Sequence record: OR769032.1
Reading direction: 5' to 3' (one strand)
Length of the DNA: 64,000 nt
Source of the DNA: Escherichia phage JoYop
The position numbers and the translations under genes are program-made. This document shows positions 153 to 49,493 of this stretch, in pieces; within the stretch, counting starts at the first letter, position 1, and each line of letters starts with the position of its first letter. Under the pieces are notes generated by a model that saw only the letters and a program-made list of their open reading frames with translations, ran no database searches and was not told where the DNA came from.

Positions 153-1334
153 TTATTCATTAAATTCTTCCATATCACTTAACTGATCTAGGTCAGTTTC
201 TAAATCAGCTGCTGATTTACTTTTACTTTCTGGAAATTTAAATTTTTCAACCTTTGAGTTAATTAATTCATCAACTTCAGCTTCAACAATTTCATTACTA
301 TCAATAGCACCTAACTGATAAGCACGTTTAATAGCATCTCGGAATGGTTGATGCTTAAATAAAGGACCCCAGAATGTAGTACAGTTGGTATCTTTTGCAC
401 GCCAAGATTTTTCTTCGCGAATCATCTCGCCGGTTTCTTCATCAAGAAATTCACGAGCATACCAACCATTTTTAGGTTTTACTACAAATCCTAATTCTAG
501 AGCCATATCTAACAATCCAGAATAAGGATCGATACCACCGTCAAATTTAACATCAATAAAGAATTTACTTTTTTCTTTAACGGTACGAGATTTTTCTACA
601 TTTAGAACAAATTGATACCCCTGAAGATCAGAACCATCTTTAATCTGGCGCTTACCGATAATGAATACGGTATCAGCCGAATACATTACGCCTGTACCAC
701 CTGTCATCACGGTTTTACTAAACATTTCAATTGTTTCAATTGTATGGTTAACCGCAACACATGGAATATTTTTAATGCTAAAATAAGGAGTAACAATACG
801 GAATAATGACTTCAGCGATTTAGCACGAGTCATATCTGCCACAGATTTTTCATTCAAGGCATCTTCCGTTTCTTTCTTAGAAGCCATATTACCGATTGAG
901 TCGATGAAAACAATAACCTTTTCACCACGCTCAATAGCTTCAAGCTGATTCACCATATCAATTTTCAGTTGTTCAACTGACTGAATTGGTGTATGAATTA
1001 CTCGTTCCGGGTCAACACCCATGGATCGCAAATAAGCTGGAGTAATACCAAATTCGCTATCATAAAATAGACAAACCGCGTCAGGATATTTGTTCAAATA
1101 CGCCGCAACCATAGTCAAAGACATATTTGATTTAAAGTGTTTAGAAGGACCTGCAAAAATAGTTAAACCAGACTGCATACCACCATCAATCGCACCAGAA
1201 ATAGCGATATTAAGCATTGGGATTTTTGTGCGAATTACATCCTTTTCATTAAAGAATTTAGATGTAGTCAGTTCAGCAGTCATTTTAGAAGTGGAAGCTT
1301 TAATCAAACGGGATTTTAAATCTGCAATAGACAT
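153..1334 (-). CDS. uvsX: UvsX RecA-like recombinase
   Basis: 393 aa; N-terminus MSIADLKSRLIKASTSK and full-length resemblance to T4 UvsX as recalled; RecA-type ATPase core. Confidence 0.95.
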   Translation of the reverse strand: MSIADLKSRLIKASTSKMTAELTTSKFFNEKDVIRTKIPMLNIAISGAIDGGMQSGLTIFAGPSKHFKSNMSLTMVAAYLNKYPDAVCLFYDSEFGITPAYLRSMGVDPERVIHTPIQSVEQLKIDMVNQLEAIERGEKVIVFIDSIGNMASKKETEDALNEKSVADMTRAKSLKSLFRIVTPYFSIKNIPCVAVNHTIETIEMFSKTVMTGGTGVMYSADTVFIIGKRQIKDGSDLQGYQFVLNVEKSRTVKEKSKFFIDVKFDGGIDPYSGLLDMALELGFVVKPKNGWYAREFLDEETGEMIREEKSWRAKDTNCTTFWGPLFKHQPFRDAIKRAYQLGAIDSNEIVEAEVDELINSKVEKFKFPESKSKSAADLETDLDQLSDMEEFNE

Positions 1335-1411
1335 TCATTTTTTCCATAGGCATCATTATATTTTCCTCACTGGTTAAAGATAAAGTAATTATAACACAAT
1401 AAATTTAGGCA

Positions 1412-2260
1412 TTAATCAACTGCTATTGGATGAATAGCATTAAACTTATGAAATGCTTCTGATTTTTCTTTACGCGAAACACACATGCGAAGAACCTTTA
1501 ATGGCTCGTCTTCTTCACCCAACGATTTTCGCTTTTCAATATTAGATGTTTTCCAACGAGCTTGCTCTGGAAACTCTTTATTAATTTGCTCAAGCGCTCT
1601 ATTATGTTTAGAATTACTACGAATTGAACTACACCCACCCGGAGCCTGTGCTTTTCCAGATACAACCAGATATTTGAACAAGGCCAAATGCGGATAACCT
1701 TGATTAATTAAATTGAGAAATGCATACATATCTTCGCATAAATCAATTTTTCCATACCCAATTTGTTCTGTCGTAAGTTTTCCGAGGTCATACCATGTAT
1801 TCGTGAATCCATATGAATTTTCACGATAATTACCCCAAGATGAAGTAATTTTAAAAATTGGTAGACGAGCATGGCCATGATAATACCCACAATCCATAGC
1901 ATCTTCAACGTATTGAATTAATTCGTAGAATTGTTCACGGGTTAATTGATTGACTTTATCTACACAACGACGATCGTCTCTTTTTCGCATTGAGCTCATA
2001 CGAATCGTAGTATCATCGTCAATCATCCAGATTCGTTGACCTGCATACATATCAGTAATTGCTTTACGAGTACCAGCAATTCCATTTACATCATCAGGAA
2101 TGGTTATAATTTTAGCTCTAGACCCGTAAGCGTCATAATAAGCTTTTTCTTCATGTTCACGTACTACGATATGAGGTTCATAATCAGTCGGAAACATATC
2201 AAGGGCAGAAACTGCCCCTACGCGTTGATAGCTTGGAATTACAAATTGAATCATTTCCAC
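1412..2260 (-). CDS. GT-A fold glycosyltransferase in the beta-gt position (T2/T6-type beta-glucosyl-HMC-alpha-glucosyltransferase candidate)
   Basis: 282 aa; FVIPSYQR N-terminal GT-A signature and DDD motif (WMIDDDTTI); sits between uvsX and gene 42 where T4 has beta-gt; does not match T4 beta-gt as recalled. Confidence 0.7.
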   Translation of the reverse strand: MEMIQFVIPSYQRVGAVSALDMFPTDYEPHIVVREHEEKAYYDAYGSRAKIITIPDDVNGIAGTRKAITDMYAGQRIWMIDDDTTIRMSSMRKRDDRRCVDKVNQLTREQFYELIQYVEDAMDCGYYHGHARLPIFKITSSWGNYRENSYGFTNTWYDLGKLTTEQIGYGKIDLCEDMYAFLNLINQGYPHLALFKYLVVSGKAQAPGGCSSIRSNSKHNRALEQINKEFPEQARWKTSNIEKRKSLGEEDEPLKVLRMCVSRKEKSEAFHKFNAIHPIAVD

Positions 2261-2991
2261 TCACCGTTATAATCTTTTTTCATAATATGAGTTTCGCCAG
2301 TATTCCACCAATGATCAACCAAGTAAAAATGACGGGAATATACATGAAGACTTCCAACATTCCATATAATAGAACCTGCTTTATACTGACGAGTTGAATC
2401 GCCTGCATTCAAATCAGATACTAATTTATCTAGTACGTATTTTTGCCATGCATAGTCATTACGGAATCCGAAGACCACGTCATTTGAGCGCATGCTAACA
2501 ACTGCATTGATTTTCTTGTCACGAATCAAGTATTGTACTGTATTCGTGCACATGAAATCTGACATACCATCTTTATTGTAGTCAAATTGCATGGATGGAC
2601 GAGTATAAATCATGATACCACGTCGAGAATCAGGATTTTGACCAAGTTCAGCTAAGCACATATCATACTGGGCATAGTTATCTTCTGACCAGATAGCCCA
2701 ACCATAATTCGAGTTAATTTCGCCTTTAGAAGATGCTACCTGTTGCCAAATCTTTGGTGTTTCACCTGGAATATCTTTAACAAACAGGCTTTGAGACTTG
2801 TACCATTCAAGTTCACGCTGAATGTATTCATCATTAAGAGCACCAAAAATAAAGGGTTCATCTGCTACAAATGATGCGCCAATAATTTCAATAGTTTTAA
2901 CACCAGTTTTATCAATTACGAAATCTTTTTCCTTTAATGCAGTTCCCAAATAAAGACGGATTTCTTCAACTGTCATAGAGTCATTAATCAT
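2251..2991 (-). CDS. 42: dCMP hydroxymethylase
   Basis: 246 aa; near-identical to T4 gp42 as recalled (MI.DSMTVEEIRL...GASFVADEPFIFGALNDEYIQRELEWYKS). Confidence 0.95.
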   Translation of the reverse strand: MINDSMTVEEIRLYLGTALKEKDFVIDKTGVKTIEIIGASFVADEPFIFGALNDEYIQRELEWYKSQSLFVKDIPGETPKIWQQVASSKGEINSNYGWAIWSEDNYAQYDMCLAELGQNPDSRRGIMIYTRPSMQFDYNKDGMSDFMCTNTVQYLIRDKKINAVVSMRSNDVVFGFRNDYAWQKYVLDKLVSDLNAGDSTRQYKAGSIIWNVGSLHVYSRHFYLVDHWWNTGETHIMKKDYNGEWK

Positions 2992-2998
2992 TTAAACC

Positions 2999-3148
2999 TC
3001 AATTGATGCATTCATATTTAAATTGTAACAGTAATAAACCCCACCCTATGATAAGAGTTGGAATCATAACAGGAACTGTTACGCTATAGTATATACTTAT
3101 TATAACCATCAAGATTAAAAGCAACACTGCTATAATTTTGCTTTTCAT
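2999..3148 (-). CDS. small membrane peptide (imm.1 position)
   Basis: 49-aa hydrophobic ORF MKSKIIAVLLLILMV...; start overlaps the imm stop (ATGA); not in the supplied ORF track (<60 aa). Confidence 0.45.
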   Translation of the reverse strand: MKSKIIAVLLLILMVIISIYYSVTVPVMIPTLIIGWGLLLLQFKYECIN

Positions 3149-3396
3149 TCTTTCTCTCTGATGATAATTACTTGATTTGGCTGTGCAGACTTTTTGGTTT
3201 CACCCGCAATTGACCAAATAAATGTAATAAACCAACCGATAATTGACCAGTTAAACAGTAAAGACGTGAAAAAGATTCCTACTGTCGATTTTGACCCACG
3301 CATCAAGGCAATGAACCATGGAAGCATGTATATAATAATAGCCAACACGCCTGAAACTAAAACCATAAAAATTGAACCTGCTACTAAAGTTTCCAT
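3145..3396 (-). CDS. imm: Imm-like two-helix membrane protein (superinfection immunity)
   Basis: 83 aa, two hydrophobic segments, located between gene 42 and gene 43 as in T4. Confidence 0.65.
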   Translation of the reverse strand: METLVAGSIFMVLVSGVLAIIIYMLPWFIALMRGSKSTVGIFFTSLLFNWSIIGWFITFIWSIAGETKKSAQPNQVIIIREKE

Positions 3397-3794: not shown

Positions 3795-4031
3795 TCAAAT
3801 GCAAGTAGTAATTACACCTGTAGTGCTCACACATGTATTCCCTAATTGAACACCTAAAGATCCGTTAGTATTCATATGAAGATTATCACCAATTTTAGTT
3901 GATACTTTCCCATTCATATGAATAATAACACTAGATTCAATAGGAGTCTGAATATCATTTTCAACATCAATAAATGGAATTGTTGCTAATGCAACTAAAC
4001 AAACTGCTAAGCAACCATAAACAATTTTCAT
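3795..4031 (-). CDS. small secreted protein, unknown function
   Basis: ATG at 4029-4031 (track start 4043 is a TTG); MKIVYGCLAVCLVALA signal peptide; RBS GGAG upstream; directly behind an early promoter. Confidence 0.5.
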   Translation of the reverse strand: MKIVYGCLAVCLVALATIPFIDVENDIQTPIESSVIIHMNGKVSTKIGDNLHMNTNGSLGVQLGNTCVSTTGVITTCI

Positions 4032-4212: not shown

Positions 4213-6909
4213 TCAGCCAAACAGGAAGTCTAACGAAGCTTTTTCTTCATAGTCCATACCTGCCGATTCACACATACCTGCAAGTGGTTTAACAAACGAT
4301 TTTTGGAACAAAGTTGAGTAGTCAATCCAAGATAGTACGTCAGAACGAATTTCCTTTGGAAGTTCTGTTCCCGATGGCCAAGCAATACACTTATCACCAA
4401 ATGGGTTTCCTTCACGTAATGGAAGAACCATTACTTTATTTCCATCCAAAATTGGAGCTACACCTAAACCGCTAACAGCTCGACGATAAGTTAGCACACC
4501 ACGAATATGGAACGGGCATTTAAATCCTGGCCAACCTTTATCATCGTATTTCGCTATATCGTTCGCAGTTTTTACTTCAGCAATAACTTTATAGTCAAGT
4601 TGACGATATTCTTTCTCAAAGTTCTTGTAATATTCTTGGACAGACTCTTCACCTTCCTGAAGAATACGACGAATACTTTCTTCGAGAGCTTCTTGTACTG
4701 CTTTTGGTGTTGAACTCTGTTGAGTTTCCATACCCATGATTTTTAGATGCGGTTCAGCAAATCGCTTATCTTCCATATCATAAACGTTCAGAGCATAACG
4801 CTTTTTCGCTTTCCAAAAACCACCGACACCCTTTGAACCAAGTGGAGGACAAGAAATAGCTTCACGGTCCATATGCATCAGATGCTCGCGGTTATTCATA
4901 TAATCACATAACTCACGATATGCAACATCAATCATAGGTTCCATCTTTTTCTTACCGAACTGATTCATGAATTCAACTAAATCATTTTGTTCTTTAAAGC
5001 GGTCAAGACCTACTTTTTCAATAACTTTATCTACGCAAACATATACCGAATCAGTGTCACCAGCTGCGATGAAGTCTTCACCATTAGTTCCACACACTTT
5101 ATTCAGATACTCATTAATTTTACGAGCAATCCACTGAATACCAACTTGGCCGAAAATTGTGATAGCAGTAGCATTTCGCAAATCATAGTAACGGAAATGA
5201 ATATTACCAAGAGCACCATAAAGACTGTTAATAAGAATTTTACGGTTCAGCTGATTTGTATTAGCAAGTGTAGCAGCTTTTTCACATTCTTCAATCAAAC
5301 TATTGAGAACAGATTCAGTATAATTCGATAGTTCATTTAAGAAATCATCACTGAACTTAACATATCGTTCAACTTCCGGTTTAGTTGAACAAGTCCCTGC
5401 GCCTTTCATAATAATTTTTTTAATAGCTTCGGCATTCATTTCTTCTGCGAACATTTTCTTTTTCCAGTCTTTACGTTGGAAAAATACTTTAGCGATTTCC
5501 TTTGGAATGATACCTTCTTGGTGCTTATCATACATCCATCCATTCGGAGAGCAAGAATATTCATCACTTGGCTTAGGAGCTGTTCCTGCGATATATTCAT
5601 GAATTGGATGAACTTTAAACTGACCACGAATAGTCTCAGGACTAATGTTAACCTGACGAATAATGCTCGGATACAGAGAAGTTAAGTCAAAACTCATAAT
5701 ATACCGACGAGCAATCGGTTTAGGTTCAAACACAAATGCACCCGGAAAACTCTGCTTAACGTGTGAACCTTGCTGAGGAATAACCTTATGTTCACCTTTC
5801 AGTGAGTTAAAAATAATAGCATCCCAAGTTTTAATAGGACTCATTACGCCAGAAAAAGGCATTTTAGCGTAATAAGACATACTTAAAACCAGATCGATAA
5901 ACCCACGAATTTTATCGATTGCTTGAACTGATTCTACGTCAATGATGTTATAACTAATGTATCGTTGATGATTAGTCTCACGAAGTTTATTAATAGGACC
6001 ATCGTACGGTAATTTACCTTTTTTGGTTTCATGTTGAGCAACTGATTCCAAAGAGAATGACGGCAAATTAGTAAACGCGAATTTCTTATACAAATCTAAA
6101 TAATCAAGAATAGATACGCCATCAATAGAATAAATTTCTTTGCTACCGTACATGTTTTGAATTAGTTTAGATTTTACTCGACCGATTGGGGAGAAGCGTT
6201 TCATACTGCGTTCACCAAGAACCATTTTAACACGATTCATGATATACGGAACGTCAAATCCCTCAATATTCCAACCAGTAAAAATAGCAGGTCGTTTCTG
6301 TTCCCAGAGATTAATATATTCCATGAGCATATCACGCTCATTATCAAATGGCATATAAATTACTCGGTCAAGAATTTCTTGAGGAACTTCATCACCACCT
6401 TCACAGTCAAGCTTAGCAGCTAATTTTGCATCCCATTTTGATACTGAGCCATACATTGAATTCAACAAATCAAAGACGTAAAAACGGTCGTCAATTGAAT
6501 CATAATGAGTGATAGCATCAATTTCATATTCTGCTTTCATTGGGTCAGGAAATTTATCACCAGTAACCTCAATGTCACAGTTAGCTACACGAACAAATTT
6601 TCGGTCATAAACAATTTCCGAACCGTATGTATCACTGATATAAGCGAGTTTAAAATCGTTCATACCGAGAGCTTCGAGACCGATGTCTTCCATTCGCTTC
6701 ATCCAGTCTCGTGCATCTTTCATTGATGGAAATTTTTGAGGAGCGCAGTTTTTACCATAGATGTCTTTGTATTTTGACTCTTCCTTACAATGCCTAAACA
6801 TAGTCGGAAGATATTCTACTTCACGAGTACGTTCCTTTCCATTTTCATCAATATAACGCTCAACAATGTTATTTCCGACTGTTTCGATAGAGATATAAAA
6901 TTCTTTCAT
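4213..6909 (-). CDS. 43: DNA polymerase (family B)
   Basis: 898 aa; same length and extensive identity to T4 gp43 as recalled (MKEFYISIETVGNNIVERYIDENGKER..., DTDS motif). Confidence 0.97.
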   Translation of the reverse strand: MKEFYISIETVGNNIVERYIDENGKERTREVEYLPTMFRHCKEESKYKDIYGKNCAPQKFPSMKDARDWMKRMEDIGLEALGMNDFKLAYISDTYGSEIVYDRKFVRVANCDIEVTGDKFPDPMKAEYEIDAITHYDSIDDRFYVFDLLNSMYGSVSKWDAKLAAKLDCEGGDEVPQEILDRVIYMPFDNERDMLMEYINLWEQKRPAIFTGWNIEGFDVPYIMNRVKMVLGERSMKRFSPIGRVKSKLIQNMYGSKEIYSIDGVSILDYLDLYKKFAFTNLPSFSLESVAQHETKKGKLPYDGPINKLRETNHQRYISYNIIDVESVQAIDKIRGFIDLVLSMSYYAKMPFSGVMSPIKTWDAIIFNSLKGEHKVIPQQGSHVKQSFPGAFVFEPKPIARRYIMSFDLTSLYPSIIRQVNISPETIRGQFKVHPIHEYIAGTAPKPSDEYSCSPNGWMYDKHQEGIIPKEIAKVFFQRKDWKKKMFAEEMNAEAIKKIIMKGAGTCSTKPEVERYVKFSDDFLNELSNYTESVLNSLIEECEKAATLANTNQLNRKILINSLYGALGNIHFRYYDLRNATAITIFGQVGIQWIARKINEYLNKVCGTNGEDFIAAGDTDSVYVCVDKVIEKVGLDRFKEQNDLVEFMNQFGKKKMEPMIDVAYRELCDYMNNREHLMHMDREAISCPPLGSKGVGGFWKAKKRYALNVYDMEDKRFAEPHLKIMGMETQQSSTPKAVQEALEESIRRILQEGEESVQEYYKNFEKEYRQLDYKVIAEVKTANDIAKYDDKGWPGFKCPFHIRGVLTYRRAVSGLGVAPILDGNKVMVLPLREGNPFGDKCIAWPSGTELPKEIRSDVLSWIDYSTLFQKSFVKPLAGMCESAGMDYEEKASLDFLFG

Positions 6910-13847: not shown

Positions 13848-13865
13848 AAAGGGCCGAAGCCCTTT
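13848..13865 (-). terminator. UUCG-tetraloop hairpin downstream of alpha-gt
   Basis: aaagggc-cgaa-gcccttt. Confidence 0.45.
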
Positions 13866-15066
13866 ATTTTGTAATAATGTCAAACTGTTCTTTAAAACAG
13901 AAGCTTGAATCTTGGTGCTGATACAAAAATTCATAAGCTTTTTCACGTTCACGATCATAAAGAGCTCGGTCAGATGACAGTTCTTTAATTCGTTCAAATG
14001 TTGATTCCATGTCATTTTCATCAAACCAAACGATACCGCTATCATGCGAAATTAACGGAGTATTATCAACACGGAATTTTAAATTTTCGCCAGTAGATTT
14101 CCAAAATACCGGAATTGTTCCGCACGCACCAAGCTCGAGATGAGTATATTCTAAAGAACGTTGTAGATATTTTTTGTCCAACTTACTCAGCTGATAACCA
14201 AATCCGGATTTACTCATGCGTTCAAGCATTTCGCTATTTACATAACGGTCAAGAATTTGCGTTGGCAAATTAGGAGCAATTTTAATTTGGTCTACTTGAT
14301 GAAGACGATAATACTCGTATGGAATTCCTTTTTCTTTAATAGGAATGAATGCCGGAGAACGTTCCAGACCTTCCATAATAGTACTTAGTCCTGCAGGTTT
14401 AAGATGTTTTTCGTGAAAATCAAACATCTGATAAAAACCTTTCCACGTAGTTGTACGACCAATCCAACGGTTGATATTCATGTTAATTTCAGAAACATCT
14501 TTCCAGTAAGTTGATCGAACCTTCGCAATATCCATAGGAGGCTGAAAGTTATATACGGTCGGTGCTTCTTCAATATCATCAAACAAAGAAACTGTTTCTG
14601 GATACCATTCTTTCATCAAAACTTTATTAAAGTCACCATTATCAGAATGACTAAAAATAACATCAGCTCGACGAACAGTTTCTTCTAATCCCAAATTTCG
14701 GCGTAAAGAAAGAGAAGAATGGTCATGTTGATAAACTACAACACGAACAGAAGGTTTAATGTTATCAATAATTTTTTTATAGTTATTAATTGTGTCTTCT
14801 TCAACTGAAGTAGCAGGAACTGAATTGATAACTAGAATATCACAATCATTTACCAGCTTAAGTGTTTTATCGTATTCTTTTGCCAATAAAACTGGAATTG
14901 AAAATGACTTATAATCATGCGCGCAATTACGAGTAAATGATTTATCTTTAGCATAAACCAAAGTTACTTCATGACCATTTTTAATAAACCAATCACGCTG
15001 CTCAAGAGAAAATTTAGTTACGCCACAACCTTCAAGACCTCGAGCCATAAAAATGCATACTTTCAT
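13864..15066 (-). CDS. agt: DNA alpha-glucosyltransferase
   Basis: 400 aa; near-identical to T4 alpha-gt as recalled (M..CIFMARGLEGCGVTKFSLEQRDWFIKNGHEVTLVYAKDKSF). Confidence 0.95.
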   Translation of the reverse strand: MKVCIFMARGLEGCGVTKFSLEQRDWFIKNGHEVTLVYAKDKSFTRNCAHDYKSFSIPVLLAKEYDKTLKLVNDCDILVINSVPATSVEEDTINNYKKIIDNIKPSVRVVVYQHDHSSLSLRRNLGLEETVRRADVIFSHSDNGDFNKVLMKEWYPETVSLFDDIEEAPTVYNFQPPMDIAKVRSTYWKDVSEINMNINRWIGRTTTWKGFYQMFDFHEKHLKPAGLSTIMEGLERSPAFIPIKEKGIPYEYYRLHQVDQIKIAPNLPTQILDRYVNSEMLERMSKSGFGYQLSKLDKKYLQRSLEYTHLELGACGTIPVFWKSTGENLKFRVDNTPLISHDSGIVWFDENDMESTFERIKELSSDRALYDREREKAYEFLYQHQDSSFCFKEQFDIITK

Positions 15067-48734: not shown

Positions 48735-48811
<77 letters not shown>

Positions 48812-48815
48812 TATT

Positions 48816-48890
48816 TGGCGGACATGCATGGATTCGAACCATGGACCAATTGATTAACAGTCAACTGCTCTACCACTGAGCTACACATCC
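48816..48890 (-). tRNA. tRNA-Asn (anticodon GUU)
   Basis: GGATGTG...GCTCAGTGGTAGAGC D-arm, loop CTGTTAA, T-arm CATGGTTCGAATCCATG, CCA end. Confidence 0.8.
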
Positions 48891-48894
48891 AAAT

Positions 48895-48981
48895 TGGTGG
48901 GGAGTGATGGAGTCGAACCACCCGAGTCGCAATGACAATGGATTTACAGTCCACACCGCTACCTCTACGGGATAACTCCCC
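48895..48981 (-). tRNA. tRNA-Tyr (anticodon GUA), long variable arm
   Basis: Loop CTGTAAA; class II variable arm; acceptor GGGGAGT/ACTCCCC; CCA end. Confidence 0.75.
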
Positions 48982-48994
48982 TTAATTCTTAATT

Positions 48995-49069
48995 TGGTGG
49001 CCCTGGGTGGAATTGAACCACCATCTGGCGATTATGAGTCGCTTGCTTGAACCTTCCAGCTACAGGGCC
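48995..49069 (-). tRNA. tRNA with CAU anticodon (Met, or Ile if the wobble C is modified as in T4)
   Basis: Loop CTCATAA; acceptor GGCCCTG/CAGGGCC; T-arm GGTGGTTCAATTCCACC. Confidence 0.75.
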
Positions 49070-49070
49070 T

Positions 49071-49146
49071 TGGTGCTGATTGACGGAATCGAACCGCCGA
49101 CCTTCTCATTACAAGTGAGTTGCTCTACCTACTGAGCTAAATCAGC
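49071..49146 (-). tRNA. tRNA-Thr (anticodon UGU)
   Basis: Loop CTTGTAA; acceptor GCTGATT/AATCAGC; T-arm GGCGGTTCGATTCCGTC. Confidence 0.8.
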
Positions 49147-49150
49147 AAAA

Positions 49151-49241
49151 CTGGCGGAGGCGATAGGATTTGAACCTATGAGTCGCCGGAGCGACTGCCG
49201 GTTTTCAAGACCGGTGCATTAAACCACTCTGCCACGCCTCC
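49151..49241 (-). tRNA. tRNA-Ser (anticodon UGA), long variable arm
   Basis: Loop CTTGAAA in CCGGT/ACCGG stem; class II variable arm; acceptor GGAGGCG/CGCCTCC. Confidence 0.8.
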
Positions 49242-49243
49242 AG

Positions 49244-49317
49244 TCTCCATACAAGGATTTGAACCTTGGACCTCCTGATCCCAAATCAGGCGCTCTACCA
49301 AACTGAGCTACACGGAG
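49244..49317 (-). tRNA. tRNA-Pro (anticodon UGG), CCA not encoded
   Basis: Loop TTTGGGA; C1-G72 acceptor; 3' end abuts tRNA-Ser without CCA. Confidence 0.75.
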
Positions 49318-49327
49318 TAAATTAAAT

Positions 49328-49401
<74 letters not shown>

Positions 49402-49406
49402 AAATT

Positions 49407-49493
49407 TGGTGCGAGAAGTGGGACTCGAACCCACAAGGAAATCATTCCGCAGCATTTTAAGTGCTGTGCCTTTACCAATTTGACCATTCTCGC
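49407..49493 (-). tRNA. tRNA-Leu (anticodon UAA), long variable arm
   Basis: Loop CTTAAAA in CAGCA/TGCTG stem; class II variable arm; T-arm GTGGGTTCGAGTCCCAC. Confidence 0.8.

Follow-up and report, generated by a model that had tools for sequence, protein, structure and literature searches.

Counterparts of the gene analysed here have been described in phages T2 and T6, in which gentiobiosyl-hydroxymethylcytosine (gentiobiosyl-hmC) is produced from alpha-glucosyl-hmC by homologous ba-gt enzymes (PMC6024577; bioRxiv 10.64898/2026.02.25.707755). The literature values for gentiobiosyl-hmC differ widely between the two phages, at ~5% in T2 versus ~72% in T6. In T2 DNA the ~5% gentiobiosyl-hmC accompanies ~70% alpha-glucosyl-hmC (PMC6024577; bioRxiv 10.64898/2026.02.25.707755; PMC11078745). 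Removal of the gene from T6, described in separate publications as T6 delta-ba-gt and T6 delta-g-gt, leaves only alpha-glucosyl-hmC, at ~75% (PMC11078745; bioRxiv 10.64898/2026.02.25.707755). Three further Tequatroviruses from the Durham collection, TB37, Solly and EH2, have been analysed by HPLC/MS and contain ~1/3 5-hmdC and ~2/3 alpha-gentiobiosyl-hmdC, with the alpha-monoglucosyl form at low background and no beta-glucosyl form, a profile that the authors credit to alpha-GT together with a TET-associated glycosyltransferase (TAGT) "at the position syntenic with" T4 beta-GT (PMC13390438). That study also mentions a Dam-like gene in those Durham phages whose ratio is 1:2:2. [quoted passage not shown]

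Organization of the ba-gt locus

The window, a stretch of 64,000 nucleotides (64 kb) from Escherichia phage JoYop (OR769032.1), begins with the uvsX–42–imm–43 region of a T-even phage, as judged from its ORFs and from annotations (Table 1). The minus strand carries an intact ORF for ba-gt, flanked by uvsX and gene 42, at the place where an earlier note made from the DNA letters had put a glycosyltransferase gene. That note gave the extent of the gene as 1412-2260; the end at the stop codon (1412) stands, while the start is moved from the GTG at 2260 to the ATG at 2254.

Table 1. Features of the window discussed in the text.
Feature	Position	Strand	Evidence or remarks
uvsX (RecA-like recombinase)	153..1334	-	ORF and annotations under the nucleotide match; downstream flank of ba-gt
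ba-gt / ggt, beta-glucosyl-HMC-alpha-glucosyltransferase (TAGT, GT-A)	1412..2254	-	280 aa; TAA stop at 1412-1414
Maximal GTG-started ORF, 282 codons	1412..2260	-	ORF list
DDD, residues 79-81 of ba-gt	2012..2020	-	GAC GAT GAT on the minus strand
FVIPSYQR, residues 4-11 of the ATG-started ba-gt	2222..2245	-	First beta-strand and loop
ATGA overlap	2251..2254	-	ba-gt start (2254-2252) and gene 42 TGA (2253-2251)
Gene 42 (dCMP hydroxymethylase)	2251..2991	-	ORF; gp42 annotation under the match in T2, RB14 and BASEL phages
imm, imm.1		-	In the uvsX–42–imm–43 region at the window start
DNA polymerase (43)	4213-6909	-	ORF
a-gt (DNA alpha-glucosyltransferase, GT-B)	13864..15066	-	PF11440 and identity to T4 a-gt

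The upstream GTG was rejected as the start because every annotated relative uses ATG, because the ATG forms the ATGA overlap with the gene 42 stop codon, and because a Shine-Dalgarno-like GGTGA lies 6 nt upstream of the ATG. The same overlap is present in T2, TB37, EH2, Solly and T6 NC_054907, in all of which the ATG matching position 2254 is the annotated start and the DNA alignment is colinear at this point. The overlap, the GGTGA and the annotation of the relatives together delimit the gene to 1412..2254, and the ATG at 2254, predicting a protein of 280 aa, is almost certainly the true start. The ATGA overlap also suggests that translation of ba-gt may be coupled to that of gene 42 and that the two genes may be co-transcribed.

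On the other side, a spacer of 77 bp (1335-1411) separates ba-gt from uvsX, and this interval does not contain the GIY-YIG homing endonuclease gene segA, as is also the case in T2 and T6. A promoter and terminator scan of positions 1200-3200 gave counts that were not above those of shuffled sequences. A GC-rich hairpin of 9 bp with a T-rich tail was observed at 2200-2220 on the minus strand, within ba-gt codons 12-19. It was dismissed as a terminator given its location inside the coding region and the roughly one such site expected by chance (shuffle mean 1.1 for a 2-kb region), and is probably without meaning.

Relationship to the T2, T6 and Durham-collection enzymes

The predicted protein aligns end to end and without gaps with the T2 enzyme BBC14657 (LC348380), with 277 of 280 residues identical, and T2 shares the length of 280 aa, the ATGA overlap with gene 42, the flanking genes and the alpha-gt partner. 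Identity rises to 279/280 for the proteins of TB37, EH2 and Solly (CAL1641136, CAL1327621 and CAJ1578263, respectively), which are encoded at the same locus, and for that of one IMG/VR contig. The T6 orthologue (YP_010067197; AXN58083), known as ba-gt or g-gt and likewise found at this locus, is 98-99% identical. The alignment to the T2/T6 beta-alpha-glucosyltransferase that the earlier note had asked for is thus positive, and its description of the gene at 13864-15066 as a T4-like alpha-gt is borne out by a match to PF11440 (E=5.2e-236) and by identity to T4 a-gt NP_049673 at 363 of 400 positions (91%).

In both T6 genomes on deposit ba-gt is damaged, in each case differently, and the window gene has neither lesion. 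MH550421 (retrieved locus 3923-3980) has an amber codon at position 10 (CAG to TAG), with the CDS annotated from Met20, and NC_054907/AP018814 (retrieved locus 162-1001) has one GAT missing from GACGATGAT, so that DDD becomes DD. The lesions could be sequencing errors, or else polymorphisms of phage stocks in a gene that is dispensable; with both deposited sequences affected, ba-gt may be dispensable and mutable in laboratory stocks.

The distribution of the gene was surveyed by megablast with the 1.1 kb between positions 1300 and 2400 of the window as the query and 50,697 phage records as the database. Matches were obtained to 538 records, at up to 97.5% identity, from phages of Escherichia, Shigella, Yersinia, Salmonella and Citrobacter. 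Where the matched region has a named product, this is given as beta-alpha-glucosyltransferase or beta-glucosyl-HMC-alpha-glucosyltransferase, with uvsX and 42 on either side. In 472 of the records at least 80% of the query is covered, so at least 472 deposited phage genomes have ba-gt in the uvsX/42 slot. Over its first 25 kb the window is 95-96% identical to many Tequatroviruses, and by its sequence the window phage is an ordinary member of this group. Nine tRNA genes are present on the minus strand at 48735-49493 (Arg-TCT, Asn-GTT, Tyr-GTA, Met/Ile-CAT, Thr-TGT, Ser-TGA, Pro-TGG, Gly-TCC and Leu-TAA); the T4 set comprises eight, from which the nine of the window differ by having Asn and Tyr.

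The earlier note had proposed a T2/T6-style addition of a second glucose to alpha-glucosyl-hmC, and orthology to the T2/T6 enzyme, the genomic slot, the accompanying alpha-gt and the measured DNA of the relatives together support this interpretation. We put the probability that the window gene is the orthologue of T2/T6 ba-gt (ggt, g-gt), with a predicted role in making gentiobiosyl-hmC from the alpha-gt product, at roughly 0.93.

Family assignment and predicted GT-A fold

The only Pfam match of the ba-gt protein at E<=1 is to PF20691 (TAGT), with 38.9 bits against a gathering cut-off of 27.5 (E=1.2e-9), and the match aligns residues 5-209 with profile positions 2-205 of 205. A homologue search of 5.8 billion proteins returned just 11 clusters, at 29-99% identity and nearly all with PF20691, making for a shallow alignment and an AF2 model of moderate quality. 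Nine of the 11 clusters were used for the family alignment, in which I6, P7, S8, Y9, R11, D79, D80 and D81 are invariant; all eight are retained in the window protein, and D79-D81 are unchanged down to 32% identity.

A search of the PDB with the ba-gt protein sequence found nothing at E<=1, and the fold was therefore assessed on the predicted model. The model matches GT-A (nucleotide-diphospho-sugar transferase) folds, displaying a single Rossmann-like nucleotide-diphospho-sugar transferase fold with an acidic DxD-type motif after a central beta-strand. Strand E3-7 coincides in part with FVIPSYQR and DDD directly follows strand E74-78. The GT-A signature read from these two motifs in the earlier note holds. 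By analogy with other GT-A enzymes, FVIPSYQR would be the nucleotide-sugar binding region, and DDD is presumed to be the DxD-type motif that binds metal and the UDP-sugar, a role generally known for this motif in GT-A enzymes.

Predicted extent of the second glucosylation

The sequence does not by itself reveal how far the second glucosylation goes, since T2, with an enzyme 99% identical, makes only ~5% gentiobiosyl-hmC. The most serious alternative accepts the same enzyme with a T2-like outcome, in which a few percent of hmC would be gentiobiosylated and the DNA would consist mostly of alpha-monoglucosyl-hmC and bare hmC. The identity at 277 of 280 residues to the enzyme of a phage with ~70% alpha-glucosyl-hmC is in line with this outcome, and the literature consulted gives no established cause for the difference between T2 and T6. 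The residues that distinguish T2, H11, R226 and S251, are however absent from the window protein, which has R11, K226 and P251 at these positions. The T2 gene lies at 1613-2455 of the retrieved LC348380 locus, and codon 11 of the window gene is at 2222-2224. Arg11 is found in the window, T6, TB37, EH2, Solly and all distant TAGT homologues, including those at 32-52% identity, as well as in five IMG/VR contigs; the scan yielded these five loci, a number insufficient to survey residue 11 across a population. His is found in T2.

In TB37, EH2 and Solly, with ~2/3 gentiobiosyl-hmC in their DNA, the protein differs from that of the window only by the conservative exchange of Arg for Lys at residue 226. 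Lys226 (window 1577-1579) is private to the window protein, with Arg in all 11 close relatives examined, and since this column is variable in distant homologues, no functional effect is expected from it. These observations make the T2-like outcome unlikely. With Arg11 kept and a single conservative residue separating the window protein from those of TB37, EH2 and Solly, we infer that the window phage would have a gentiobiosyl-hmC majority like that of T6 and TB37, and not the ~5% of T2.

The same comparison makes R11H in T2 a candidate explanation of the T2/T6 difference, and we did not find His11 of T2 discussed in the literature consulted on these glucosyltransferases. A tentative extension, which we consider possible but would not favor, is that the window carries the "wild-type" Arg11 allele with a T6-like gentiobiosyl-hmC majority, that the low level in T2 arises largely from R11H, a change at a family-invariant residue of the presumed nucleotide-sugar-binding motif near the N-terminus, and that T2 may thus represent a hypomorphic laboratory variant and not a modification type of its own.

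Comparison with T4 beta-gt and other TAGT enzymes

The window gene resembles T4 beta-gt in occupying the equivalent slot beside gene 42, and its enzyme is predicted likewise to use UDP-glucose and to attach the sugar to modified phage DNA in beta linkage; the product in some records (teqsoen, Sf22 and SH7) is labelled "putative beta-glucosyltransferase". The gene might on these grounds be taken as a stand-in for T4 beta-gt that places a single beta-glucose directly on hmC. The enzymes differ, however, in that T4 beta-gt is a GT-B protein with bare hmC as its acceptor, whereas ba-gt is a predicted GT-A protein expected to act on alpha-glucosyl-hmC, and the sequences are unrelated. BLASTP of the ba-gt protein against T4 beta-gt (NP_049658) gave a best E of 2.2, and a tblastn search of the whole 64-kb window with T4 beta-gt returned no match at E<=10, in agreement with the statement in the earlier note that the protein does not resemble T4 beta-gt. 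The empty tblastn result also led us to reject a diverged or displaced beta-gt elsewhere in the 64 kb. With PF20691 as the lone Pfam match, the protein does not belong with T4 beta-gt by sequence or by profile; the combination within the 64-kb window, an alpha-gt partner present and a T4-type beta-gt absent, is that of ba-gt phages. Phages whose protein differs at one residue have no beta-glucosyl-hmC and leave ~1/3 of hmC unmodified (PMC13390438), and T6 without the gene keeps alpha-glucosyl-hmC only, so that direct beta-glucosylation of hmC by the window enzyme is very improbable.

In T4, segA and b-gt (351 aa) lie between uvsX and 42, whereas the window has the 280-aa ba-gt alone, without segA. 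The claim that the GT-A gene replaces beta-gt is therefore apt relative to T4 but not in general, T4 being the odd one out: most T4-like phages combine alpha-GT with TAGT.

Slighter still is the chance that the enzyme is a TAGT-family transferase for another sugar or acceptor (e.g. arabinose or another hexose), as in the distant solitary TAGT homologues, for although the Pfam family is broad, the match has an E-value of just 1.2e-9, and solitary TAGTs with unknown products occur in 288/753 genomes (PMC13216743), the protein is 99-99.6% identical to enzymes whose product is genetically and chemically defined, and its specificity is very unlikely to have changed.

Proposed modification pathway

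The preferred reading is thus of a T2/T6-type ba-gt, an intact and syntenic orthologue with the full set of family-invariant residues and a predicted GT-A fold, accompanied in the window by alpha-gt and by no beta-gt. The chemistry and product assigned to it below, and the defence effects discussed in the next section, come from the literature on ba-gt orthologues. In the proposed pathway, hm-dCMP would be made by gp42 and hmC would enter the phage DNA during replication. The GT-B alpha-gt would then put an alpha-linked glucose on ~3/4 of the hmC, and the GT-A ba-gt is predicted to add a second glucose from UDP-glucose, in beta-1,6 linkage, onto the alpha-glucose to yield gentiobiosyl-hmC. The hmC out of the reach of alpha-gt (~25-33%) would stay unglucosylated; since there is no T4-type beta-gt in the window, this fraction is expected to remain bare and beta-glucosyl-hmC is not expected to be made.

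Implications for phage defence

The effects of this modification on defence systems have been described for the relatives. In vitro, gentiobiosyl-hmC is resistant to Brig1, and it is also resistant to deglucosylation by BapA (bioRxiv 10.64898/2026.02.25.707755; PMC11078745), and loss of ba-gt from T6 turns its DNA into a substrate for both Brig1 and BapA and renders the phage more sensitive to Brig1 (PMC11078745; bioRxiv 10.64898/2026.02.25.707755). GmrSD still targets gentiobiosyl-hmC (PMC13216743), and ~25-33% of hmC is unglucosylated in such phages (PMC13390438; bioRxiv 10.64898/2026.02.25.707755), which implies exposure of this bare fraction to the 5hmC-specific glycosylase Brig3. On these data from relatives, the altered susceptibility to restriction anticipated in the earlier note would be partial, applying to Brig1 and BapA without extending to GmrSD or to Brig3, to which the bare hmC is open.

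The finding is correct yet ordinary, as the second glucosyltransferase of the T2/T6 type is already known and was recently re-published. It fixes the annotation of the window phage as a Tequatrovirus of the T2/T6 type (alpha-GT plus TAGT), a class whose DNA contains hmC, alpha-glucosyl-hmC and gentiobiosyl-hmC but not beta-glucosyl-hmC. Membership predicts that the DNA is shielded in part from Brig1, a glycosylase for alpha-glucosyl-hmC, and is not readily deglucosylated by BapA, that GmrSD-type enzymes still act on it, and that its bare hmC is exposed to 5hmC-directed systems such as Brig3. While it brings no new biology, the class assignment is useful in the choice of phages for therapy and in the interpretation of host range.
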